Below, in pieces: positions 9,820 through 54,731 of a stretch of 64,000 bases of DNA (its first letter is position 1; each line of letters starts with the position of its first letter). Both the position numbers and the translations under genes were made by a program. Where the stretch lies: assembly GCA_963753975.1 (NCBI GenBank), contig CAVWEH010000001.1, positions 32,001 through 96,000 of the forward strand. The letters run 5' to 3'. This DNA comes from an uncultured delta proteobacterium (GTDB taxonomy: Bacteria; Desulfobacterota; Syntrophia; Syntrophales; Smithellaceae). The notes under the pieces were generated by a model that was given only the letters and a program-made list of their open reading frames with translations, did no database searches and was not told the DNA's origin.

Positions 9820-10878
9820 ATGAGCGCAAACGAAAAAAATATTTCAGGAACAATATTGAGAATACAGCGCATGTCCACCGAGGATGGACCGGGCATCAGG
9901 AGTACTATCTTCTTCAAAGGTTGTCCGCTTTCGTGCGTCTGGTGTCATAATCCGGAAAGCATCTCACCCAAAATACAGGTGCATTGGGAAAAGACCAGGT
10001 GCCTTGGCTGCATGGGTTGTATAGAAGCATGCGTAAAAGGATCTTTGGCGATGGCCCAATCCGGCATTGTTATCGATCGGCTGACGTGCGACTCCTGCGC
10101 TACATGTGTTGTGGCCTGCCCGTCAACAGCCATGGATATCTACGGAGAAGACTGCAAGCCCAATGATCTGGCGCGTGAAGTTATGAAAGATAAGGTATAT
10201 TTCCAGAAGTCAGGGGGTGGAGTGACATTATCGGGCGGCGAACCGACTATGCAGCCGCTTTTTGCCAGAGAGCTGCTTTCCGCTTTCAGGAAGAGTGGCC
10301 TCCATACAGCTCTGGATACCTGCGGACAATGTTCGTGGGAAACCCTGGAGGAACTCCTGCCATATACGGATATGGTTATGTATGATCTCAAGGAGATCGA
10401 TCCCGACAAGCATAAAAAATTCACCGGAATTTCCAATACCAGAATATTCGAAAATCTTACCTCGCTTGGTCGCTTTATGAAGGAGCGCGGCATGCCCGGC
10501 GAGCTCTGGATTCGCACACCTTTGATACCGGATTGCACAGCCACACGAGAGAACATCACGGGTATCGGCGTCTTTATTAAAGAACACCTGGGAGAAATTG
10601 TCGGCAGATGGGAGCTTTGTACCTTCAATAATCTGTGCACTCATAAATACGAGAGTTTGGGAATCGATTGGGCATTTAAAAGAACGGGCCTGATTTCCCC
10701 CGAAGAAGCTGGAAACATGGCTTTATTGGCCCGGGATTCGGGGGTCGAAACCGGGATCGTTCACGTAAGCGGACCCATGAGAAATACAGACTCGGCTGAA
10801 TCTATGGGAGACGCATCTGATAAAAGTGTTATAAATAATAATTCCCGCGAATGGAAAAGTGAGGAAGGTTACGCATGA
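9820..10878 (+). CDS. Glycyl-radical enzyme activating enzyme (radical SAM with ferredoxin insert)
   Basis: DGPGIR, CPLSCVWC, two CxxCxxCxxxC motifs, GGVTLSGGEP. Confidence 0.93.
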   Translation: MSANEKNISGTILRIQRMSTEDGPGIRSTIFFKGCPLSCVWCHNPESISPKIQVHWEKTRCLGCMGCIEACVKGSLAMAQSGIVIDRLTCDSCATCVVACPSTAMDIYGEDCKPNDLAREVMKDKVYFQKSGGGVTLSGGEPTMQPLFARELLSAFRKSGLHTALDTCGQCSWETLEELLPYTDMVMYDLKEIDPDKHKKFTGISNTRIFENLTSLGRFMKERGMPGELWIRTPLIPDCTATRENITGIGVFIKEHLGEIVGRWELCTFNNLCTHKYESLGIDWAFKRTGLISPEEAGNMALLARDSGVETGIVHVSGPMRNTDSAESMGDASDKSVINNNSREWKSEEGYA

Positions 10879-26832: not shown

Positions 26833-26882
26833 CATTGACTTTAGAAATAGTCTATCCTTGGACCGATGAGTTAAACGATTCT

Positions 26883-26943
26883 TACTTCCTGAAATATTGC
26901 TTTTCTCATTTTCCTAATTCACACAACATTTTAATCGGAAATA
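26883..26943 (-). repeat. R-type half of the dispersed bipartite site (degenerate)
   Basis: TACTTCCTGA-N28-ACAC-N4-TTTTAA-N4-AAATA versus consensus TTCTTCCTGT-N28-ATGC-N4-TTTCAA-N4-TAATC. Confidence 0.45.
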
Positions 26944-27033
26944 ATCAAAATACTGCTGGACTCTAATTTAATGTGTGATAAACACTTCTAAAAATCCTCC
27001 GGAATTTGGATTGAATATAAGGACAAAGAAACA

Positions 27034-28794: not shown

Positions 28795-28819
28795 TTTAAT
28801 AAGCATACTCTATCATTAA

Positions 28820-28876
28820 TTACAGATAGTAGTCCTCACTTCAATTCAAAATTGAGAATATTTATTTGTAGGTGAA
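28820..28876 (-). repeat. L-type half of the dispersed bipartite site
   Basis: TTACAG-N4-TAGTC-N33-GTAGGTGAA. Confidence 0.55.
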
Positions 28877-29181
28877 GTAAAGTATCGTAATTATAATCTA
28901 GCTTTGATCAATTAATAAGTTTTGTTTAAAAATAAAAAAGGGGCATGATTAGAAGTAAAGAATTCCGGCAGGCGCTGAATAAGCATCGTTTCCGGCGCTT
29001 TGCCGTGGCTTAATCTCCCTTTTGCCATCCTCTATAAACCTCTCAAATCGCCTCTCCGAATCTTCTGCAGTATCTCTGTTTGTTTTATCAGTCGCCTTCT
29101 ATCATTAACTTCTAAACCGGGCAGTTTATATTCTACACAACCGGACATATTATGTGCTTTTTAGAATTACCATATTATTTC

Positions 29182-44178: not shown

Positions 44179-44275
44179 AGACGGGAGTGGGAATCGAACC
44201 CACATCTACTCGTTTTCACGCGAGTAGCATCACAGGTTTGAAGCCTGCGCCGCACACCAGCACGAACGTCCCGTC
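44179..44275 (-). tRNA. Atypical tRNA with UCA anticodon (tRNA-Sec-like)
   Basis: GCAGG-CTTCAAA-CCTGT anticodon arm, 6-bp D stem with TGGT loop, long variable arm, GTGGG-TTCGATT-CCCAC T arm, GACGGGA/TCCCGTC acceptor; no encoded CCA. Confidence 0.8.
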
Positions 44276-45613: not shown

Positions 45614-45916
45614 TTAATTATAATAGACCTCGTCATGTGAACCAACATCTAAAAGAATAACTTCTTTATCAACAATTTTTAGAAGTAGAACTATACGATA
45701 CTCATAGTTCAGCCTTACGACGTGCTTTCCTTGATGCCGCCCTCTAAGAGAATGAAGATGTAATTGCGGTGTCTGTGGATTTGTTTCAAGCAGGTGCAAT
45801 ACGTTTTTAAATAAACCGACTAACTCGGGATGCCGACGCAGAAATTTTCGAGCAGTTCGAAAAAAAGTATCCGTCCAAACTAATGAATAAGCTGGGTTCG
45901 TCTTGTCGGCGGGCAT
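45614..45916 (-). CDS. Type II toxin, RelE/YafQ-like mRNA interferase
   Basis: LHLHSLRG, YRIV, DVGSHDEVY. Confidence 0.85.
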   Translation of the reverse strand: MPADKTNPAYSLVWTDTFFRTARKFLRRHPELVGLFKNVLHLLETNPQTPQLHLHSLRGRHQGKHVVRLNYEYRIVLLLKIVDKEVILLDVGSHDEVYYN

Positions 45917-45918
45917 TA

Positions 45919-46170
45919 TTAATTCTTTAGTAATTCGGTCATTAGTTGTCTGAAATTCCCCCGCTTTATGCGCCCGGCTTTCAGATCGTTTTCGGATGCG
46001 GCAAGACGTGCCTCGGCCAAATCACTAAGAATGTTTTCGTAATCTTTTTCAGACAGGATGACATACTTGGGCTGATTATTACGAACTATATGTACGGGAC
46101 CATCTACAAGCGCTTCATCAACGGCGCTGATGCCCCGACGCTTGATTTCCTGGGCGGCAATAGTTTTCAT
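45919..46170 (-). CDS. Type II antitoxin, Phd/YefM family
   Basis: GPVHIVRNNQPKYVILS; directly upstream of toxin. Confidence 0.85.
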   Translation of the reverse strand: MKTIAAQEIKRRGISAVDEALVDGPVHIVRNNQPKYVILSEKDYENILSDLAEARLAASENDLKAGRIKRGNFRQLMTELLKN

Positions 46171-46373
46171 AAATCATTAACTCCTTTTTGTATCAATTTC
46201 GGTACTATTATAAGTGCTAATTATGGACTTGTCAACTCAATTCAATGGATTTAATAAAGAAATAATCAGTCCTCTCGGGCATAAATTCCCATTGACAATT
46301 TATTTGTAATCATATTAGAAAAAGTAACATATTTAATAAAATAAAGTAAAAAGTATCGCCTTTCTTATAGTTT

Positions 46374-46431
46374 TACACCTCCTTATCAACAACTTGCCAT
46401 GATGGACGGTATTGCAGATTAACATAAGAAA
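46374..46431 (+). repeat. L-type half-site, left boundary of the tandem unit array
   Basis: TACACCTCC-N34-GATTA-N4-AAGAAA with exact consensus spacing. Confidence 0.6.
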
Positions 46432-46664
46432 GGTACAATAAGACTGCCCCTTCTTATGTTACCTGCAGTTCTTCGAAGGCTTGTTCTTTTTCGCTCACTT
46501 TGTTCGCCGTGATAATTATCTTGATAGAGGTCTTTTTCATCTGCGTTGCTTAACCTTGCCACCCAATGTGAACAGATCACCTTTGGGTAGCGAAATAGAT
46601 GACGCAAGCCCCTTTGATAGATACAAGGCTCTTTTTAAAAAAGTGGGATGAACTTTTCGTCATC

Positions 46665-47238
46665 CTACCTTCTATCCTCTCTTTCTTCCCTTCCTCTTTC
46701 ATGGTTTCCCTGTTGTTGTGGCCGGGACTGTCGTGGTCGCACCTCTCGAGAAGGTTGTTGTGATCGCGTTCGGGGCTTCAAACCTTGGACACCCCAAGTA
46801 TTTTGCTTCTCCCAATGTCTGCTCTTTTCCCAGTTGCTCCAGTTCTGTTGGACTTGTTGGTGGGGTATTCGCTGGTAGTTCCATGGATGTCCTCTCCAAC
46901 GATGCTCCCTGTAGTCATTCCTCCAACCTGATGGTATCCCTCTATAAAAAGATGGAACGTTTCGATAGTAGCCCCAACCTGAATTATAGTTCCGCGAGCG
47001 ATACCATCGCCCTTCCCACGGACGCCACCACCAACCATTGTAGAAGAAGATGTCCACATCTACAGTCAGGGACGACATAGACATACGTCTCAGGTATCAC
47101 TACCACCTCTGGAGGTGCGGCAAATACGATGGGTGGCGGCAGAGAAATGCTAACGTCTACATCTACCCTTGCCATCGTTGGAGCAGGAAATACAAGTACC
47201 AACGCCAAAAGTATTGTTCCCAAAAATAACTTTTTCAT
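46665..47238 (-). pseudogene. Secreted Trp/Pro-rich protein split by one extra base near 47064
   Basis: MKKLFLG...VYVVPD (ORF 46984..47259) continues as VDVDIFFYNGWWWRPW (ORF 46665..47084). Confidence 0.75.
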
Positions 47239-47327
47239 TTTATTGTATCCTATACACATCAGTGTTTTGTCTCCTCTCTAAAGATATATGACAATCCAGT
47301 TTTTTAAAAAAATGCGAAAACCAGATT

Positions 47328-47792
47328 TCATCCTTTTGCCGGGTATTGACTATCGTGGTCACGATGGTGTGCCCACCTCTTTGCATGGTGTCTGTGAGGT
47401 ATTCTATCAAGTTTAGCAATCTGCTCCGGAGTGAGAATTTTACGCCACTCGATTTTCATTCCACCCTTCTTGTCCGATAGTTGCTGGCGAAGTTCACTTA
47501 TCTCCTTCTGCTTAGCAAGAAGTGTTGCATCATCCGTCTTAGGATCTGTGAAAAGTTTACGCATTTCTAATCGCTTGATTGCGAGATTGTATCTCAAATC
47601 TCTCGTATCATTACGAAAGCTGTTTCTCAGATCTTTCATTTTGGCTACTTGTTTGTCTGAAAGGCCAAGATAGTTCTTAAAACAGAATTCTTTGTAGGAA
47701 CCGGGTTTCTTATCGGGCTGAAGTGCATACGCCGACACTACAACCGCTGCCGATACGATAAGGACAGCAATAACGATAAATATTTTCTTCAT
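47328..47792 (-). CDS. Spy/CpxP/ZraP-like periplasmic protein
   Basis: Signal peptide, LGLSDKQ and ILTPEQ (LTxxQ) motifs, His-rich tail. Confidence 0.85.
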   Translation of the reverse strand: MKKIFIVIAVLIVSAAVVVSAYALQPDKKPGSYKEFCFKNYLGLSDKQVAKMKDLRNSFRNDTRDLRYNLAIKRLEMRKLFTDPKTDDATLLAKQKEISELRQQLSDKKGGMKIEWRKILTPEQIAKLDRIPHRHHAKRWAHHRDHDSQYPAKG

Positions 47793-47835
47793 TTTTTCTA
47801 ATACTCCTTTCGCAAAAATATTTTGATTATGTTAA

Positions 47836-47853
47836 AAGCAAGAAATAGACCAA
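47836..47853 (-). promoter_or_regulatory. Putative sigma54 promoter
   Basis: TTGG-TCTATTTCTT-GCT (GG-N10-GC) about 45 bp upstream of the Spy/ZraP-like gene; short inverted repeats at about 47928-47970 could be activator sites. Confidence 0.5.
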
Positions 47854-48103
47854 TCAAAAGATGCATAACAAACACTCGAATATTACTAAATATAATCTAA
47901 TAGACACGGGAATGTCATGAGCGATAGCGGATAGAATGTATCCACTTATTGGTATCCATATGGGTAATAAATATGCAGAGAGGAGAGAATTAAATTGACG
48001 ATACTATAGCCCAGAAAAATCTAGTTTTCAGAATTATGTTGTTTTTCAGGGGGAAAGTTGTGTAGAGCTTAGCATCATGAAATAAACGGTTCAATCCAAT
48101 AAC

Positions 48104-48233
48104 GAATATCGTTTGAAAGGGTGCATGCCCATTAAAATAGCCGAATACTTGACTTCGGGAACAAGTGCTTACTCACTACACCTACAAAGAAACAAGCATA
48201 GCGAATAAATATTTTAATGATTTTCATTTGAAA
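48104..48233 (+). repeat. Full R+L junction of the bipartite site
   Basis: GAATA-N4-TTGAAA-N4-GCAT-N28-TCGGGAACAA-N12-TACACCTAC-N33-GATTT-N4-TTGAAA. Confidence 0.7.
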
Positions 48234-48238
48234 TGTTT

Positions 48239-48293
48239 GATCAACGTAGAAATCAGCCTGAGCGTAGCGACCGGCTGAATTTTATTGTTAGAG
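48239..48293 (-). other. Integron attC site
   Basis: CTCTAAC...TTCAGCC...GGCTGA...GTTGATC imperfect palindrome. Confidence 0.85.
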
Positions 48294-49245
48294 CTTCTCC
48301 TTTTTTTCCTTTCCTTACCAGCTCATCATACTGCTCAACGATGTCTTGATTATAAATTTGCTCCATCATTATTCCGAATGCCACATTATGCGAAAGTTGT
48401 TCTAGGAAAATAGCTTCAAGCCGGAATTCTTCCTGTTTATCAGGATGCCAATTATGTTTTCTTTTAGTTGAATAGTGATGTAAATAACCCCTCATCATTA
48501 CTAGTTGATTTATTATTTGCTCAACATCTTTGGACAAGTACTGGCTTTCATATTTACTTCTCATTTCAACTGGAAGATGCCGCCGAAATTCTTCGTTCCC
48601 CAAAACACTACGTATATTCTCAATAAATTCTGGAGATTCTTTTAGCGCTTTCTCAACTGCATAATTCTTATTCTTGCCTCCAGCATAATAAGACTCAATG
48701 ACAAAGTAGAAATTGTAAATTGCCTCAATATAATCTTGGTTCTTAACATCAACCCTGCCACGCTTATTAAAAGATAGCAATACATTGTGCTGCTTGGCTT
48801 TGACCGATGCAATTATTGGCCTAGCAATCAAATCAAAGGATACTGGCATTATTTCATTATCTTTAAGTTCTTGAAAACCTACAGAGAAGTTAAAGATCTG
48901 TAATTTTTCCTTCTCTTCTTCATTTTCAGCAATCCATTCATGCTTTGGCCTGCGTATTCCGATAGATTCCACTCCCCAAAAAGACAACATTCCTTCGATT
49001 TGCCTCATTATTTCTTCTACTTCATAGATGCGAGGACTGGTTACATTTACGTGAAGAGTAATGCCTGGCTGAGGATGATTGATTACACTTGGTAATTCAT
49101 GGTCAGTTATTTCGAACGACACACGTATATTTCTAATGAATCCTCGCTCGACATCAAATTCGAACAAGAAATCGTCAACCTCAAATGAACAGATCTGTTG
49201 AGGCTTTATCCTTCCTTTTATCTCGAATGTGTAGCGGCATCTCAT
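48253..49245 (-). CDS. Cassette-borne protein with C-terminal HEPN-like motif (ApeA-like architecture possible)
   Basis: AT-rich; RGYLHH (Rx4H); C-terminus reads through the attC. Confidence 0.65.
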   Translation of the reverse strand: MRCRYTFEIKGRIKPQQICSFEVDDFLFEFDVERGFIRNIRVSFEITDHELPSVINHPQPGITLHVNVTSPRIYEVEEIMRQIEGMLSFWGVESIGIRRPKHEWIAENEEEKEKLQIFNFSVGFQELKDNEIMPVSFDLIARPIIASVKAKQHNVLLSFNKRGRVDVKNQDYIEAIYNFYFVIESYYAGGKNKNYAVEKALKESPEFIENIRSVLGNEEFRRHLPVEMRSKYESQYLSKDVEQIINQLVMMRGYLHHYSTKRKHNWHPDKQEEFRLEAIFLEQLSHNVAFGIMMEQIYNQDIVEQYDELVRKGKKGEALTIKFSRSLRSG

Positions 49246-49259
49246 GTTTGCTTTTTGTA

Positions 49260-49318
49260 CTCTAACGCTAGGCATCAGCGGCGGTGTCAGCGCGTCTGCG
49301 TGGATACCATGGTTATGT
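49260..49318 (-). other. Integron attC site
   Basis: ACATAAC...GTTAGAG, 59 bp. Confidence 0.85.
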
Positions 49319-49338
49319 GATAACTTCTTCCTTGAAAA

Positions 49339-50145
49339 TCATTTTTTATTTTTTAATGATCGAACTTTTTTCCCCATATCTGTTGGTTGGATATACCCAG
49401 TTTCTTTCTCAAAGTAGTCACGTGTCTTATGCAAATACTCGAATAATTCCTTTGAACCTAATTTTTTTGCGAGACCTTCAAATACAGTTATTGCTCTTTG
49501 CGTGTAAACCTCTATCTGACCGATGCACATGTGTACTCGTGGAGTTGCGCGCATCCCCCCTAAATGAAATTTGGGAGGGCTACCACCATACGTCTCCATA
49601 ATATGTGGATAAGCGCCATGCACATAGCCAGAAAGAGCGTCATTGGTGACTTGAAACATCTTCTGCAAATCGCTTGGATTAACATAAGGCCCCATCTGTC
49701 GCGCAACGGAAGCCCATATTTTCCTTTTCGGAACAGTCTCACGACGTGTCTCATTTTGCAAAGGATTATTAGGGTTTTTAAATTCTTCATTAAAAAAGTC
49801 CTCTATAAACTTCCTCTGGTGATTATCAAGTGTGCTGCTTTCAGCGTTTTCAAGAATGAATAACATTTCATGTAAAAAGTCATCTAAGGTACGCAAAAGC
49901 ACCATGGCTTCTTGAACAAAACCCCCAGTCAGCAGGAACAAACAAGCGTTCAATCCACTAACGACACGTACACCTTTTAGGAAAGCAACGTGATAAACAG
50001 TGTGCTCCTTATATCTAAATTGTTTTTTACCAGAGACATCGATGAATACAGGCTTTGGGACTAGGCCGTCGTCAATCGCTCTAATCGAAGCAGCAAGCCG
50101 ATTAACACACTTTGTAATTACAGTTAGTAATTTGATTTGGTCCAT
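49339..50145 (-). CDS. Cassette-borne DUF5677-like (HEPN-related) protein
   Basis: LLRTLDD and LSGYVHG motifs. Confidence 0.6.
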   Translation of the reverse strand: MDQIKLLTVITKCVNRLAASIRAIDDGLVPKPVFIDVSGKKQFRYKEHTVYHVAFLKGVRVVSGLNACLFLLTGGFVQEAMVLLRTLDDFLHEMLFILENAESSTLDNHQRKFIEDFFNEEFKNPNNPLQNETRRETVPKRKIWASVARQMGPYVNPSDLQKMFQVTNDALSGYVHGAYPHIMETYGGSPPKFHLGGMRATPRVHMCIGQIEVYTQRAITVFEGLAKKLGSKELFEYLHKTRDYFEKETGYIQPTDMGKKVRSLKNKK

Positions 50146-50155
50146 TGTTTTCAGG

Positions 50156-50211
50156 TCATAACGAAAAAATCAGCCGGAGCGCAGCGATCGGCTTTATTGT
50201 TTTTGTTAAAA
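50156..50211 (-). other. Integron attC site
   Basis: TTTTAAC...AGCCGATCGCTGCGCTCCGGCTGATTTTTTC-GTTATGA. Confidence 0.85.
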
Positions 50212-50213
50212 AC

Positions 50214-50765
50214 TTAGACTCTAATGCTAGTTTTTTTCACTACTTTAATAATAGCCTCCACGTCTGCCCCATCATAAACTGCTGGAATGAATGGCTTATT
50301 GTGGGCGGCTAGATGCAGTTCTTTGAGAACTTCCCAAAGTTTTTCCATTACCGAATTGAAGAGCAAACCTTTTATGCCAGCATTTTTCCACACAGCCGAG
50401 GGATTGAAGACTGCATTCTTATCAATATGAAAATGTGTTTTGTCCCGAATTTGGTTTAATTTGTCAGATAAATCTTCAATATCTTCATACGGCAGTTCAT
50501 ATTTATCCAATAAAACCTGGAATTCTTTTCTATTACATTTATACAAATATAGAATTGATGATGCATCTTTATGCTTATCTAATACTTTAATAGCATGAGC
50601 AACCATATCATTATACAAAGCCAGATACGCATATGAAAAAAAAGTCCCGGATGTTTTCGGTGCGGATTTTGCAAGCGCATTAACTGCATTCCGATTCGAC
50701 AAGCAACGATGCACTTCGTAAAGATTTCTTCTTAAAGCCATATAGTATCTGTCAGGTTTATTCAT
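50214..50765 (-). CDS. Cassette-borne HEPN-like protein (AbiU2-like possible)
   Basis: Helical-looking sequence with IRDKTHFH (Rx5H) motif. Confidence 0.6.
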   Translation of the reverse strand: MNKPDRYYMALRRNLYEVHRCLSNRNAVNALAKSAPKTSGTFFSYAYLALYNDMVAHAIKVLDKHKDASSILYLYKCNRKEFQVLLDKYELPYEDIEDLSDKLNQIRDKTHFHIDKNAVFNPSAVWKNAGIKGLLFNSVMEKLWEVLKELHLAAHNKPFIPAVYDGADVEAIIKVVKKTSIRV

Positions 50766-50772
50766 GCTCAAT

Positions 50773-50823
50773 TTCTAACGAAAAAATCAGCCGAAGCCGC
50801 AGCGATCGGCTGGATTGTTATAT
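50773..50823 (-). other. Integron attC site (shortened spacer)
   Basis: ATATAAC...CAGCCGATCGCTGCGGCTTCGGCTGATTTTTTC-GTTAGAA; near-identical to the attC at 50156. Confidence 0.82.
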
Positions 50824-50826
50824 GGG

Positions 50827-51645
50827 TTATTTCATCAGCTCAGGACCAACTTCACACCAAGTTCCGATAAACTCTTGATCTTTTTCATTCAGTAACTTTT
50901 CAATCTCCTGGAACATCAATGAGTAATTGTAAAGATATAGTCCTGTACATATAAATAGGGCGTTGAGCATTGTATTCAAAATCCAATTTGAGGTCTTAAA
51001 GTCTGACTGTGACGTCTGTAAAAGGCTGCTACTTGTAGGATGTGCATATGATGAGAAGTAATTGTAACAGTTCTTAGAAAGTGGTTTTGAAAAGCCTGCT
51101 CTTTCCAATAATTCCCGTTTGCTCACAAAACACCATTTCCCTTCTTCCTCATATCTCTTTTTTTGTTTGCTGCTAAATGATTGGTACGACTTATGCCCTT
51201 GTAACTCATTCCAGATGCGATCAATCTCCTGCTTATTATTCTTCAGTTTCTCAGGATAATAGATTACGGTCAACCGTTGTTTATACATCAAACCTTCTCG
51301 AAACCAACTCCAGAATCTGAAGTATGTTTCTTGAAAATCGCTTGACTCTCTATAAATGTGATGAAATATGGCGAAGTTTTCTAAGCTCGCCCTGATTAAA
51401 ACCAATACTGAGGCTAACGCGGTCATTTCGTCCTCTCTGCTTTTATAGTATATTCGCAATCCTGGGGTTAATGTCTTAATTGAGATAAAATGAGTAAAAT
51501 ACTGCTTGAAAAATTCTTGTTTGTAGTAGTCCAACTTTACATAGTTCAAGGATTTTCCGTCAAGCTCCTCAAAAGATTTTGTAATCAATCCCTCAAACCA
51601 ATTAAACAGTATTTCTTTTTCCATTGAGAGATAAGCGAGATTCAT
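50827..51645 (-). CDS. Cassette-borne DUF5677-like (HEPN-related) protein
   Basis: LIRASLE and YNYFSSYAHP motifs. Confidence 0.62.
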   Translation of the reverse strand: MNLAYLSMEKEILFNWFEGLITKSFEELDGKSLNYVKLDYYKQEFFKQYFTHFISIKTLTPGLRIYYKSREDEMTALASVLVLIRASLENFAIFHHIYRESSDFQETYFRFWSWFREGLMYKQRLTVIYYPEKLKNNKQEIDRIWNELQGHKSYQSFSSKQKKRYEEEGKWCFVSKRELLERAGFSKPLSKNCYNYFSSYAHPTSSSLLQTSQSDFKTSNWILNTMLNALFICTGLYLYNYSLMFQEIEKLLNEKDQEFIGTWCEVGPELMK

Positions 51646-51663
51646 TGTAGTGCAATCCTATAC

Positions 51664-51721
51664 ATATAATGACTGATTTCAGCGATGCGCTTGTTGTATC
51701 CGATGTAACGATTTGTTATGC
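51664..51721 (-). other. Degenerate attC site
   Basis: GCATAAC...ATTATAT (core G to A); internal palindrome eroded. Confidence 0.65.
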
Positions 51722-51760
51722 GCACTAAAAATCTAACGGGCACACAATGTAAACGCCAAC

Positions 51761-51822
51761 GATTACAGATTGTAACCTAGCATAAAAATTAAAAATTTGA
51801 AAAATAAGGATTACAGGAAGAA
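51761..51822 (+). repeat. R-type half-site closing the cassette array unit
   Basis: GATTA-N4-TTGTAA-N4-GCAT-N29-ACAGGAAGAA. Confidence 0.7.
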
Positions 51823-51851
51823 ATTTACTTATAGCAGGGGAAAGTCATATC

Positions 51852-52358
51852 TCAAAGCCCTTGTTTCTTATATTTCTGGGCTAGTTCAATATTAAATGCA
51901 GAGGTTATTGTTATATAATCTTTTTGTTCCTGAGATAGTTTGCCTTTCACTTTGGCAGGCACACCCGCGGCCAACGATTCTGCGGGGAATTTCGTTTCTG
52001 GAGCAACTACGGAGCCGGCGGCGATAATGCAATAGTCTCCGATTTCAGCATTATCTAGGACAGTAGCATTGTTACCTATCAGAACATTACTACCGATTTT
52101 CTTGCAGTGGACGACAGCTCCGTGTCCCACGACCGTATTGTCTCCAATAATCATATCTGTGGCACTGTGCACTACGCAATTATCTTCGATGCAAGTGTTT
52201 TTACCTATGGTTATCTTGGCAATATCTCCCCTGATGACTGCCCCTGGCCAGATGTTAGCATTTTCACCAATTTCAACATCGCCGGCGATATAAGCAGTCT
52301 CACTCACGAATGCAGAAGCTGCTATTTGAGGATTCTTGCCATTGAAATCTCTTATCAT
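51852..52358 (-). CDS. Gamma-carbonic-anhydrase family (hexapeptide repeat) protein
   Basis: IAGDVEIG, IRGD, VVH...VGHGAVVH. Confidence 0.9.
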   Translation of the reverse strand: MIRDFNGKNPQIAASAFVSETAYIAGDVEIGENANIWPGAVIRGDIAKITIGKNTCIEDNCVVHSATDMIIGDNTVVGHGAVVHCKKIGSNVLIGNNATVLDNAEIGDYCIIAAGSVVAPETKFPAESLAAGVPAKVKGKLSQEQKDYITITSAFNIELAQKYKKQGL

Positions 52359-52466
52359 GGTTTGGCTCTTTAATAAGATGTAACTTTTAATGCAGGGAGT
52401 ATAGAGAAAAACGGTCTTGCATGTCAATTTAATATTGACGACAAAATGTGGGTTGCGGATTGTGTT

Positions 52467-52606
52467 TATAACGGATTGAAAGTTTGCATGTACATGAAAA
52501 ATGTTAAACGCTCACTTACAGGAAGAAATGCATGCTGAAAATACCTACTACTGTTTAGTCTTGCGTATTTATAATAACTAAGAATTATGGATCGGAAGAG
52601 AGTAAC
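52467..52606 (+). repeat. Full R+L junction of the bipartite site
   Basis: TTGAAA-N4-GCAT-N28-ACAGGAAGAA-N12-AATACCTAC-N34-AATTA-N4-TCGGAA-GAGAGTAAC. Confidence 0.72.
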
Positions 52607-52671
52607 AACGCAAATCAACCTTGAGGAGACCACGCAATGGGTTCCGAATAGGATGAATTTGCTTGTTGTGC
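52600..52671 (-). other. Integron attC site
   Basis: GCACAAC-AAGCA-AATTCATCC...GGTTGATTTGC-GTT-GTTACTC; cassette start TTGTGC (53027-53032) is complementary to this R'' box. Confidence 0.7.
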
Positions 52672-53019
52672 GGAATTTATCTTTTTTCGTGCTTTACGAT
52701 CATTAAGCAAATATATGACCATAGGAACCATGAGACCCAACACCCATCCACAAGGAATACCAATATCTAGCGAAAGAATTGCCCACCCCTCGGTCTCGAC
52801 TTCATCAAAAGGGCCGACAAATAAGTATATTACTAGACCAACAATAAGAGTTGCTATGACTGGACAGGCGAAAGTCCACGCATAGACAATTTTACATCGA
52901 CTGACGGACTTAAAATAAAAACCGGCGATTAGTCCCGGAATGACAAAGACCACCACACTAACAGGAAAAATTAATAGGGGGTTCGGTATCGTGTATAGAA
53001 TGTCTAAAATATGTTCCAT
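52615..53019 (-). CDS. Cassette-borne small membrane protein
   Basis: About three TM segments; C-terminus reads through the attC. Confidence 0.65.
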   Translation of the reverse strand: MEHILDILYTIPNPLLIFPVSVVVFVIPGLIAGFYFKSVSRCKIVYAWTFACPVIATLIVGLVIYLFVGPFDEVETEGWAILSLDIGIPCGWVLGLMVPMVIYLLNDRKARKKINSAQQANSSYSEPIAWSPQG

Positions 53020-53092
53020 ATTTCATGCACAAATATTAATATACGTGCTTCGCTTTTTCCGGTGAAAGGAAAAACAAGGAAAACTTATTCAA

Positions 53093-53237
53093 GATTATTG
53101 GTTGAAATCAAGCATTATTTTCAAGGGTGACGTTTTGCTGACTACAGGAAGAAGCAAATAATACTTACACCTACTAATCCACAGTATTTAGCAGTCGTCA
53201 AAATTGAGGATTACTGGTTGAAAAAAAAGAGAGTAAC
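53093..53237 (+). repeat. Full R+L junction of the bipartite site (best-preserved copy)
   Basis: GATTA-N4-TTGAAA-N4-GCAT-N28-ACAGGAAGAA-N12-TACACCTAC-N34-GATTA-N4-TTGAAA(A5)GAGAGTAAC. Confidence 0.75.
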
Positions 53238-53270
53238 GAGTGACCACTCACAAGCCCCGACTGGTTAGCG
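53231..53270 (-). other. Internally deleted attC remnant
   Basis: CGCTAACCAGTCG...CACTC-GTTACTC, only 40 bp. Confidence 0.4.
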
Positions 53271-53492
53271 GCTTATTAGAAGCTACCTTGGAGGTAGAAC
53301 CTCATATGTAAACATAACGCCATCATCATAATATTGATGAGCATGATACTTCCTGTTGCTTTTTATTGAAATAGATGCAAGGAATAACTTTCCAACATAC
53401 TTGTCAGTTACTTGGAACGTAGCTAAAAAATCTGTAAGAATAATATTAACAAGAAGAATGCGATTGACAATACGTTTTGGGAAATGCAGGCT

Positions 53493-54386
53493 TTATTTTG
53501 TATCTGCAATATCGATATACTTGGCATCAGGCCAGCGAAGTAATCCCATTATCAGGTGATACAATACGAAAAGCTCCATCGAAAAGGGAATGTAGCCGCA
53601 ATAGCCCAAGAGCGGCATCTCAAATATGTGCCAGAAATCAATATAGGGAATCGTGTATATCCACTTGGGGTATGACCAGAAATTCCACATTTCCCAAAAG
53701 AAGCCGCAGATGAGACTGCCCAGCCACAGAGATACAATGGGCCGCCAGTCGCCACGTTTTGTAAAATCAGTAATAGAGGGGTATTTGAGGATGATATTAA
53801 TCGGCTCAATGATAAAGAACACGGAAAGCCACATTAAAGGAAAAAAATATCGGGGCCATGCCAGAAGAACTGCGATCATCGAGGTCCCGAAAAGAAAAGA
53901 TGATACAATGGTTCTGCGAGTGGGATAAATCTTTGGCCCTTCACTGAATCTTCGTACACAGGAGAACGTACCGACTAACTCAGCGGTGCCAAAAAGGGCC
54001 GGCATGACCGTAGAAAAACTTACTGTAGCAAAAAGTGTATATTGAAGATTAGTGAAGCAATCACGACCCAGGTAGTGCCAGTTTTGTACCCGCCAGTTGA
54101 GAGCTTCAAAGAGCCACCAGGCAGGAACTGAAACGATAAATAAGCTCATAAACCACCAGATGTTTTTTCCCTCCTTGAAGCTACGCATCAGCAAGGATGT
54201 GCCCTTTCTCATCAGGACAAGTGCATCCACAACCAGAATGTAACCAAGCCATAAAGGAAAAAAGAGAAGGTGAGTGCGCAGCCCTGAAAAAAACCAGTTT
54301 GCAGGCCAGGCAAAGCTAATGAGGAAGAGGCCGATCCAGCCATGCACAGCAAAATCTTTCACGGAAATAAAATGTTTCATAGTCAT
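53493..54386 (-). CDS. Conserved-looking polytopic membrane protein
   Basis: Multiple TM segments; internally repeated WWLFE..N...NWHY / FFWEMWN...KWIY. Confidence 0.75.
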   Translation of the reverse strand: MTMKHFISVKDFAVHGWIGLFLISFAWPANWFFSGLRTHLLFFPLWLGYILVVDALVLMRKGTSLLMRSFKEGKNIWWFMSLFIVSVPAWWLFEALNWRVQNWHYLGRDCFTNLQYTLFATVSFSTVMPALFGTAELVGTFSCVRRFSEGPKIYPTRRTIVSSFLFGTSMIAVLLAWPRYFFPLMWLSVFFIIEPINIILKYPSITDFTKRGDWRPIVSLWLGSLICGFFWEMWNFWSYPKWIYTIPYIDFWHIFEMPLLGYCGYIPFSMELFVLYHLIMGLLRWPDAKYIDIADTK

Positions 54387-54595
54387 TCAGATTTCATGAC
54401 CTTCGACACACATTTGCTATACGATTAATCCGCAACGGTGTAGATCTTTACACTGTTCAGAAACTAGGTAGATGGAAGACAGTAACGATGGTTCAGCGGT
54501 ACGCCCATCATCACCCGGAAAGTCTGAGAGCTGCTATTGAAATGATTGATGAGATCAAAGAGCCGATTATCACAAATTTATCACAATCAGTCTAA
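54383..54595 (+). pseudogene. C-terminal remnant of a phage-type tyrosine integrase
   Basis: Reads FRFHDLRHTFAIRLIRNGVDLYTVQKLGRWKTVTMVQRYAHHHPESL...*; HxxR, W and catalytic Y present; no start codon. Confidence 0.88.
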
Positions 54596-54644: not shown

Positions 54645-54731
54645 TGGTGCCGGAGGTCGGAATCGAACCGACATGTCCTTGCGAACGGGGGATTTTGAGT
54701 CCCCTGCGTCTACCAGTTTCACCACTCCGGC
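54645..54731 (-). tRNA. tRNA-Leu(CAA)
   Basis: GCCGGAGTGGTG...GGACTCAAAATCC...GGTTCGATTCC...ACCA. Confidence 0.96.

Follow-up and report, generated by a model that had tools for sequence, protein, structure and literature searches.

A stretch of 64,000 nucleotides from an uncultured delta proteobacterium (Desulfobacterota, Syntrophia, Syntrophales, Smithellaceae; GenBank assembly GCA_963753975.1, contig CAVWEH010000001.1, positions 32,001 to 96,000 of the forward strand; hereafter the window, with coordinates given as positions in these 64 kb) contains a tandem array of gene-carrying units bounded by two types of short site, designated L and R. The units almost certainly belong to a mobile cassette system. 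Judging from comparisons of sites, flanks and recombinase genes, we favour, with reasonable but not high confidence, a two-site model in which L sites are exchanged with L sites and R sites with R sites by a tyrosine recombinase of 279 aa. The cassette system, for which a candidate enzyme and the exact substrates can be named, is real and widespread, and it is apparently undescribed.

Occurrence of L and R sites

Refined profiles detected 33 L and 42 R sites at E ≤0.01 in the genome to which the window belongs (G000), as compared to none of either type in the reversed genome; the motif, first noticed in a reading of the sequence alone, thus occurs above chance. Because the profiles were trained partly on copies from the window, independent support rests on other genomes. 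In a sample of 101 genomes of the class, R sites are present in 75, with at least 48 in the richest, and L sites in 62 at E ≤1e-5; among 151 genomes of the phylum, 19 contain R sites. The profile scan of this and related genomes that the sequence-only reading had suggested hence found sites genome-wide and class-wide: the system is not confined to the island that carries the array in the window. Plasmid sequences gave no site match. In viral contigs, the exact junction had no match, and looser patterns yielded 11 loci, five of them with profile-supported sites.

Anatomy of the sites

L sites have the core CACCTAC and R sites the core CAGGAAG, each with a GATTA-N4-TTGAAA box located about 45 bp inside. 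The L consensus, derived from 243 distinct copies, reads TTRYTGNTTW [CACCTAC] WAVT-N2-TCART ... TTGARGATTAC-N3-TTGAAA, the box starting at +41, and the R consensus, also from 243 distinct copies, reads ATTAC-N3-TTGAAA-N4-GYAT-N28-TTW [CAGGAAG] WART. The boxes of L and R are direct repeats, and each lies on the cargo side of its core. When anchors with up to two mismatches are admitted, the exact heptamer occurs in 247 of 303 L sites and in 236 of 279 R sites. It is surrounded in both site types by a weak dyad, GAYTW-N7-WARTC, and its centre is the best dyad axis among the axes tried, in L and R alike. Conserved hairpins were not found in L or R, 28 R and 27 L sequences having yielded no consensus pairs, and neither logo matched the dif arms; the host's own dif site was looked for and not identified.

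The box shares its 6-4-3 layout with the IHF consensus of Escherichia coli but departs from it at two positions, in 99% and 95% of 349 boxes, respectively; only 11 of the 349 are within one mismatch of that consensus. Among the best box matches in G000, 26 of 34 fall in L or R sites. Matches to the IHF/HU family number four to seven per genome. To judge from these sequences, the box may be a variant bending site or a site specific to the recombining enzyme. A motif resembling a sigma-70 promoter (TTGAC-N7-GTCCAA) recurs on the opposite strand 25–45 bp outside many L sites (outer flanks at loci L029, L035, L027, L112, L129 and L140).

Position of exchange

Crossovers were mapped by comparing, position by position, the identity of site pairs with the same cargo and different flanks and of pairs with the same flank and different cargo. 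At L, identity in 21 same-cargo pairs was at background at −1 and above background from +9, while in 23 same-flank pairs it was down to background at +7. At R, identity in 18 same-cargo pairs exceeded background as far as +7 and had dropped to it by +9; the 17 same-flank pairs stayed close to background up to −1 and were 100% identical at +7/+8. Exchange takes place in or within 2–3 bp of each heptamer, and the spacer between an R core and the following L core travels with neither cassette. Since the crossovers lie at the two 7-bp cores and not in the R–L spacer, L and R are probably two separate sites and not halves of one att site.

Units, arrays and cargo

For 34 L sites of G000, the next site within 8 kb was an R on the same strand in 22 cases, another L in three, and in no case a site on the opposite strand; nine L sites were followed by nothing. 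Across 118 distinct L...R units, the median length is 1,329 bp. Each cassette holds one to six genes, with 143 of 174 cargo open reading frames (ORFs) reading from R to L, i.e., most cargo genes have R at their 5' side, and L lies at gene 3' ends. Cassettes occur singly or in long arrays, and the arrays of relatives include runs of R only. Comparison of orthologous loci revealed that L and R are kept and the cargo differs. The cargo, mostly judged by eye, includes secreted proteins, sensors, and efflux and metabolic operons, and is functionally unrelated. By eye, an mreB-like gene is located between L and R in genome G025 (L438:1752-2789), and an IHF/HU-like gene adjoins R in G032 (L133:6738-7016).

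The distance from R core to L core in 57 junctions was 23 (30 cases), 24 (nine), 48–52 (12), 65–70 (three) or 107 bp (three); the spacer length classes span 16–100 bp and recur independently of both neighbours. An AAC triplet follows the box after 5, 6 or 8 bases in 80 of 267 L sites, as compared to about four per offset elsewhere, and many of 25 AAC-bearing examples run on into attC-like sequence. The attC array in the window is joined at GTT at both inner edges. The AAC excess and these joints indicate that integron cassettes are common cargo. In 52 units with both ends free, neither a consistent target duplication (0–3 bp) nor a direct repeat longer than 3 bp was found at the unit ends.

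The proposal, made from the window alone, of non-autonomous mobile units which are stacked head to tail and carry integron cassettes as well as ordinary genes is supported by these data. The sites do not look like a regulon, the breakpoints being sharp at the 7-bp cores and the cargo functionally unrelated, nor like recognizable ends of an insertion sequence (IS); in particular, the consistent target duplication and true inverted repeats of DDE elements are lacking.

Several unusual arrangements were observed. Five of the 118 units are minimal forms of 97–103 bp in which L and R share one box, including L027:9723-9832 (contig C2 of G000, 441222-441331). At L027:3570-3812 and 9847-10467, about 260 bp of a flanking gene start is duplicated between R and the next L, as if flanking DNA had been carried along. 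Two R sites on opposite strands face each other at a distance of 60 bp at L025:9862-10056.

A candidate recombinase

The lead to the enzyme was a contig with an R site near a short tyrosine recombinase. The catalytic residues of this 279-aa family (R142, H224, R227, H251 and Y260) align with those of XerC and XerD. The proteins consist of a SAM-like and a catalytic domain only, which fits a simple tyrosine recombinase, i.e., a core-binding and a catalytic domain without an arm domain, as this class is defined in PMC8138268. Their closest solved structure is archaeal XerA (5hxy, E 4e-14); scores against the NCBIfam models are all below the cut-offs (XerC 67/335, XerD 73/330, XerA 125/220), and two scores against the integron integrase model TIGR02249 were 61 and 63 bits at a cut-off of 265. 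At E ≤1e-40, 2,679 homologues were retrieved. The enzyme is encoded in 23 of 401 genomes of the phylum and in 16 of the 101 class genomes, all 16 of which contain R sites (Fisher p 0.01, with kin that are not independent).

Its association with the sites was scored at 52 loci (duplicate L584 dropped) with profiles trained without them, at a threshold of 11 bits; the denominators comprise loci with at least 350 bp of flank. Among near homologues (at least 60% identical to the protein of L569), an upstream L whose outer side faces the gene was present at nine of 22 loci, and a downstream R at 11 of 22, mostly 95–139 bp from the stop codon; two more R sites score 10 bits. By hand count, 15 of 24 near homologues have at least one site, or 14 of 23 if the locus found through its site is omitted. 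Sites were absent from all 25 loci of homologues less than 60% identical, after removal of three loci found through sites, and from all 44 loci of other tyrosine recombinases. With L upstream and R downstream, the gene holds the position of the spacer, in the order R, gene, L. At least five families show this stereotyped layout, and at L618, two copies of the gene each lie between L and R inside one array. In a tree of 23 near-intact sequences plus XerC and XerD, all 14 site-flanked members fall into one branch of 18 (support 91/92, not starred). The gene is framed by an inverted motif, CCCCAAAGACC, which is found upstream of 18 of 25 and downstream of 22 of 26 near homologues, as opposed to four of 25 and one of 24 distant ones, and a reversed copy of the box lies between its stop codon and R. 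On this genomic context, the 279-aa protein is probably the recombinase of the system. At L282:1190-2863, a copy of the candidate gene is cut short at R beside a divergent second tyrosine recombinase of the paired type.

The sequence-only reading had the units mobilized in trans, compared their ends with the att sites of tyrosine recombinases and suggested a search for an L...R unit that encodes a recombinase. Movement in trans by a tyrosine recombinase is probable on the present data. The candidate gene, however, lies between R and L and not inside such a unit. A two-motif scan of 620 ORFs within L...R units found no recombinase; homology searches later added a pair of IS91 type and an integrase of P4 type, both of which we judged to be passengers. 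In G000, the matches of a broad tyrosine recombinase profile were confined to XerC, an XerD with a frameshift, one integrase of phage type and two fragments; all that resembles IntI (by eye) in this genome is a C-terminal fragment. The xerD gene of G000 (locus L001, C2:602455-603499) is split over two frames, due to either a sequencing error or a real frameshift. A serine recombinase was rejected, as PF00239 had matches in none of five high-copy genomes with a control that was positive in 12 of 14. Matches to the IS110 family PF02371 occurred in three of five genomes, one of seven loci having an L about 1.2 kb away, and the IS91 family PF04986 was found in none of five genomes, where its control was silent too.

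Proposed mechanism and alternative explanations

Tyrosine recombinases require identical overlap regions in partner sites. If the enzyme cleaves at the edges of the heptamer, the heptamer would constitute the overlap region, and L would therefore pair only with L, and R only with R. A single crossover would excise or insert a circular cassette, thereby building arrays of the type R-spacer-L or runs of R, and two crossovers would swap the cargo at a fixed locus, in a natural form of recombinase-mediated cassette exchange. Short spacers would be junctions without the enzyme gene, presumably after its loss, so that genomes such as G000 would be served in trans or their cassettes would record past activity. 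New cassettes might arise from sites that come to flank chromosomal genes (pseudo-sites), or by the joining of integron cassettes, through a GTT, to the inner edge of L, possibly via IntI.

A number of observations weigh against this model. The enzyme was not found in G000 (by tblastn) or in G011, G032, G039, G073 and G025, which are among the genomes richest in sites; many copies of its gene contain stop codons, nine of 24 near homologues are without the canonical layout, and the copies in genome G103 (L547, L583) have R in the other orientation. A clean empty site was sought among relatives and none was found, and the genomes and loci compared include kin that are not independent. Dyad symmetry is modest (mean 0.41–0.43 over six positions), and the heptamer could therefore be a binding arm beside the cut. 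Moreover, an IS91-like element of G039, comprising a tyrosine recombinase and a Y2 transposase, is inserted just before the GAAA of the box in all three of its near-identical copies (L130:12191-14289, L404:4591-6689 and L405:5225-7323), two of these insertions being in clear L sites and one in box-like sequence, which indicates that passengers can favour L and R sites. The 279-aa recombinase might accordingly be another such passenger or parasite, entering R–L junctions by its own ends in a cassette system that is otherwise as described and depends on a different enzyme. Its frame of CCCCAAAGACC motifs, its absence from the highest-copy genomes and the precedent of the IS91-like element are compatible with this explanation, which we nevertheless regard as unlikely: the stereotyped layout and the reversed box between stop codon and R argue against it, and no other recombinase or transposase recurs among 755 ORFs near sites at 247 loci. 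The helper might also be host XerC/XerD, or a tRNA-integrating element that encodes a rolling-circle Rep protein (PF23343) together with a phage-type integrase. XerC and XerD are encoded in all high-copy genomes searched. PF23343, for its part, occurs in seven of 12 genomes with at least 30 R sites as compared to seven of 89 others, and in G000 and G039, which belong to two genera, the stop codon of Rep is followed by an L at a distance of about 19 bp; both findings also count against the 279-aa enzyme. However, XerC and XerD are likewise encoded in genomes without sites, and no xerC or xerD locus is near a site; the Rep element comes with a separate att repeat at a tRNA gene, its copy in G080 has no site, and L and R are devoid of a conserved hairpin, so that we consider a helper of either kind quite improbable. 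The Rep element of G000 (L028:3172-10500; C2:536684-544044) encodes a phage-type integrase, an HTH_17 protein and a REP_ORF2-G2P Rep protein, is bounded by a repeat of the 3' half of the tRNA gene, and has four L/R units aboard.

In the sequence-only reading, R plus L formed a single attP-like site with a core of roughly 30 bp; R and L would then be the attR and attL halves, and the units integrase-less tandem elements, akin to cis-mobilizable elements (CIMEs), that recombine by a single crossover in the spacer. Alternation of L and R on one strand, boxes 115–116 bp apart across the junction, and the 16-bp spacer class in 30 of 57 junctions would fit such a site. This interpretation is not supported, and we rate it as improbable, because exchange occurs inside two different heptamers and the spacer, which belongs to neither neighbour, may be up to 100 bp long or hold a whole gene; in addition, R-only runs exist, and the units are distributed over dozens of loci instead of one attB. 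Non-autonomous transposons of the DDE type (copy-out, paste-in) that favour insertion beside existing ends would account for abutted ends with short spacers, for the AT-rich symmetric flanks and for an IHF-like box near each end. The lack of a consistent target duplication in the 52 free-ended units, ends that are not true inverted repeats, and the absence of rve matches from G000 and G080 make them very improbable. Finally, the preference of R for the 5' side of cargo genes could suggest regulatory modules, such as promoters or operators, that ordinary homologous recombination has shuffled; with sharp breakpoints at the 7-bp cores of sites that are diverged elsewhere, L at gene 3' ends and unrelated cargo, this explanation is extremely improbable. 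Exchange at two sites, L with L and R with R, therefore remains the model we prefer.

The array in the window

A profile scan of the window found the copies at the positions claimed from sequence alone, namely three R+L junctions, one solo R and one solo L, and confirmed the box-to-box spacing of 115–116 bp across the junctions. The consensus given for them was correct in that the motif is present, but it is a composite from which single copies deviate: the copy at 48104 has the R core CGGGAAC, and in that at 52467, GATTA is replaced by TATAA and the second box is decayed. The unit with the gamma-carbonic-anhydrase-like gene indeed has no L match between its two R sites. As to the cassette from 53166 onward, which had been thought to be empty, its L is present, but an attC-like hairpin and a gene for a 297-aa protein follow, and no closing R was found. 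The features are as follows.

R+L junction 1: R box at 48104, cores at 48156 and 48179
R+L junction 2: R box at 52467, cores at 52519 and 52542
R+L junction 3: R box at 53093, cores at 53145 and 53168
46366..46441, plus strand: degenerate L site opening unit 1 (core CACCTCC 46376-46382, decayed box 46417-46431; 14.3 bits, best score in the reversed window 5.7)
46665..47259, minus strand: cargo of unit 1, small protein with signal-peptide-like start, two overlapping frames (46984-47259, 46665-47084), no Pfam family
47328..47792, minus strand: cargo of unit 1, Spy/ZraP-like protein of 154 aa (Metal_resist E 5e-12, LTXXQ E 2e-8)
48100..48162, plus strand: R site closing unit 1 (box 48104-48118, GCAT 48123-48126, core CGGGAAC 48156-48162 with two mismatches; 36.8 bits)
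48163..48178, plus strand: junction spacer of 16 bp, the commonest class
48179..48243, plus strand: L site opening unit 2 (core CACCTAC 48179-48185, box 48219-48233; the last attC is joined by its GTT to the inner edge; 31.6 bits)
48239..51760, minus strand: cargo of unit 2, captured integron cassette array (genes 50827-51645, 50214-50771, 49339-50145, 48253-49275)
~51664-51721 (imperfect), 50773-50823, 50156-50211, 49260-49318 and 48239-48293, minus strand: attC-like sites of unit 2, repeat families D6-D8, by eye
51760-51758, minus strand: first GTT of unit 2, abutting the R box
51757..51820, plus strand: R site closing unit 2, with no L after it (box 51761-51775, core CAGGAAG 51814-51820; 27.6 bits)
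51852..52427, minus strand: cargo of unit 3, hexapeptide-repeat (gamma-carbonic-anhydrase-like) gene between two R sites, no L (Hexapep E 1e-24)
52459..52525, plus strand: R site after unit 3 (box 52467-52481, core CAGGAAG 52519-52525; 49.0 bits)
52526..52607, plus strand: 16-bp spacer and L site opening unit 4 (core TACCTAC 52542-52548, decayed box ~52583-52597; 32.3 bits)
52615..53019, minus strand: cargo of unit 4, hydrophobic protein of 134 aa, attC-type GTT at the inner edge of L
53085..53151, plus strand: R site closing unit 4 (box 53093-53107, core CAGGAAG 53145-53151; 42.2 bits)
53152..53223, plus strand: 16-bp spacer and L site opening unit 5, its R not found (core CACCTAC 53168-53174, box 53209-53223; 54.1 bits)
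53231..53281, minus strand: attC-like hairpin bordering the last L on its inner side, by eye
53493..54386, minus strand: membrane protein of 297 aa downstream of the last L, no Pfam family
54314..54517, plus strand: decayed phage-type integrase (PF00589 E 5.8e-15, four stops), beside tRNA-Leu (54645-54731, minus strand)
257-332, 1042-1111, 26878-26951 and 28811-28881, all minus strand: four further L/R sites, 28881-26878 being a complete single-gene unit

The cargo of unit 2 matched the Pfam families HEPN_Apea, DUF5677 and HEPN_AbiU2 below cut-off. The array is part of an island of 9 kb, which has a LysR gene on one side and tRNA-Leu on the other; two congeners are without the entire 45.6–54.6 kb stretch. 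As the same sites occur at dozens of genome positions, the island is the host of the array and not its cause; the decayed phage-type integrase is a remnant of this island and not a candidate enzyme. The left island end encodes a YafQ-like/Phd toxin-antitoxin pair (45614-46170), which lies outside the first L. A tRNA-Sec gene at 44180-44275 was detected by Rfam and missed by ARAGORN; on the 44–56 kb segment of the window, Rfam found tRNAs only. A protein-coding remnant was rejected as the source of the motif: the period of 116 bp is not divisible by 3, and stops interrupt the frames (by eye).

Comparison with known systems

CIMEs and other products of tandem accretion consist of integrase-less units that are mobilized in trans, with one att core at one attB. 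The L/R cassettes resemble them in being integrase-less and arranged head to tail, and differ from them by two different end cores and many loci. Engineered cassette exchange, a laboratory method, relies on heterospecific lox or FRT sites: the incompatible spacers of a site pair allow the cargo to be replaced by a double crossover. The L/R system would likewise have paired incompatible sites, but as a natural system with accessory boxes and growing arrays. Integrons, as described in PMC9771954, are arrays of enzyme-less cassettes moved by a tyrosine recombinase whose gene is located beside a site, and the mobile, enzyme-less cassettes of common polarity and the position of the recombinase gene are features shared with them. 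Unlike integrons, the system described here has no attC-like hairpin in L or R, two sites per cassette, cargo that includes several genes and housekeeping functions, arrays at dozens of loci and a candidate enzyme far below the IntI cut-off, and true attC cassettes occur among its cargo.

Shufflon sfx sites, according to PMC9045228, are asymmetric, with a conserved 7-bp core for crossover, one conserved arm and one variable arm. Like these substrates of the shufflon recombinase Rci, L and R have asymmetric arms around a 7-bp core for crossover, with breakpoints in the heptamer ±2–3 bp; whereas shufflons invert segments at one locus by means of one core, here there are two cores in direct orientation, and insertion and exchange would be genome-wide. 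The pdif modules of Acinetobacter, which act with XerC/XerD, are small, enzyme-less, bounded by recombinase sites and shuffled in arrays (PMC9771954). The L/R cassettes are likewise small enzyme-less units between recombinase sites in arrays, but in contrast to the dif-like, inversely oriented pdif sites, L and R differ from the dif consensus, possess an accessory box and are linked to a dedicated enzyme clade. Strand-biased circularizing elements (PMC10214605) and RIT elements (PMC8138268) are tyrosine recombinase elements that move cargo; they carry several core genes or three recombinases inside, whereas the L...R units examined carry none. Among the subgroups of simple recombinases that PMC8138268 lists, none is described in this role.

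The system lacks defining features of integrons, pdif modules, CIMEs, shufflons and DDE elements. By analogy, it is integron-like in outcome, shufflon-like in site design and similar to engineered exchange in its logic. A description of this system or of a natural arrangement of two incompatible sites was not found in the literature, with most subscription journals not covered.

Implications

We lean, if only slightly, towards regarding the system as a second class of bacterial gene cassettes, independent of integrons, in which one small tyrosine recombinase acts on sites with two heterospecific 7-bp cores, performs cassette exchange in nature, assembles arrays at dozens of chromosomal loci, takes up housekeeping genes as well as complete integron arrays, has its own gene as an exchangeable R–L piece, and has reshaped a noticeable share of the genomes of syntrophic Desulfobacterota. 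Integrons are the textbook cassette system; here, by contrast, the sites appear to be double-stranded and of two incompatible kinds, and the system is invisible to integron and IS finders. If the model is true, the enzyme and its incompatible site pair would be a ready-made tool for genome engineering. The system would also explain a large part of the variation in gene content among syntrophs of the Smithella and Syntrophus type, organisms that matter in anaerobic digestion and in wetland methane cycling.

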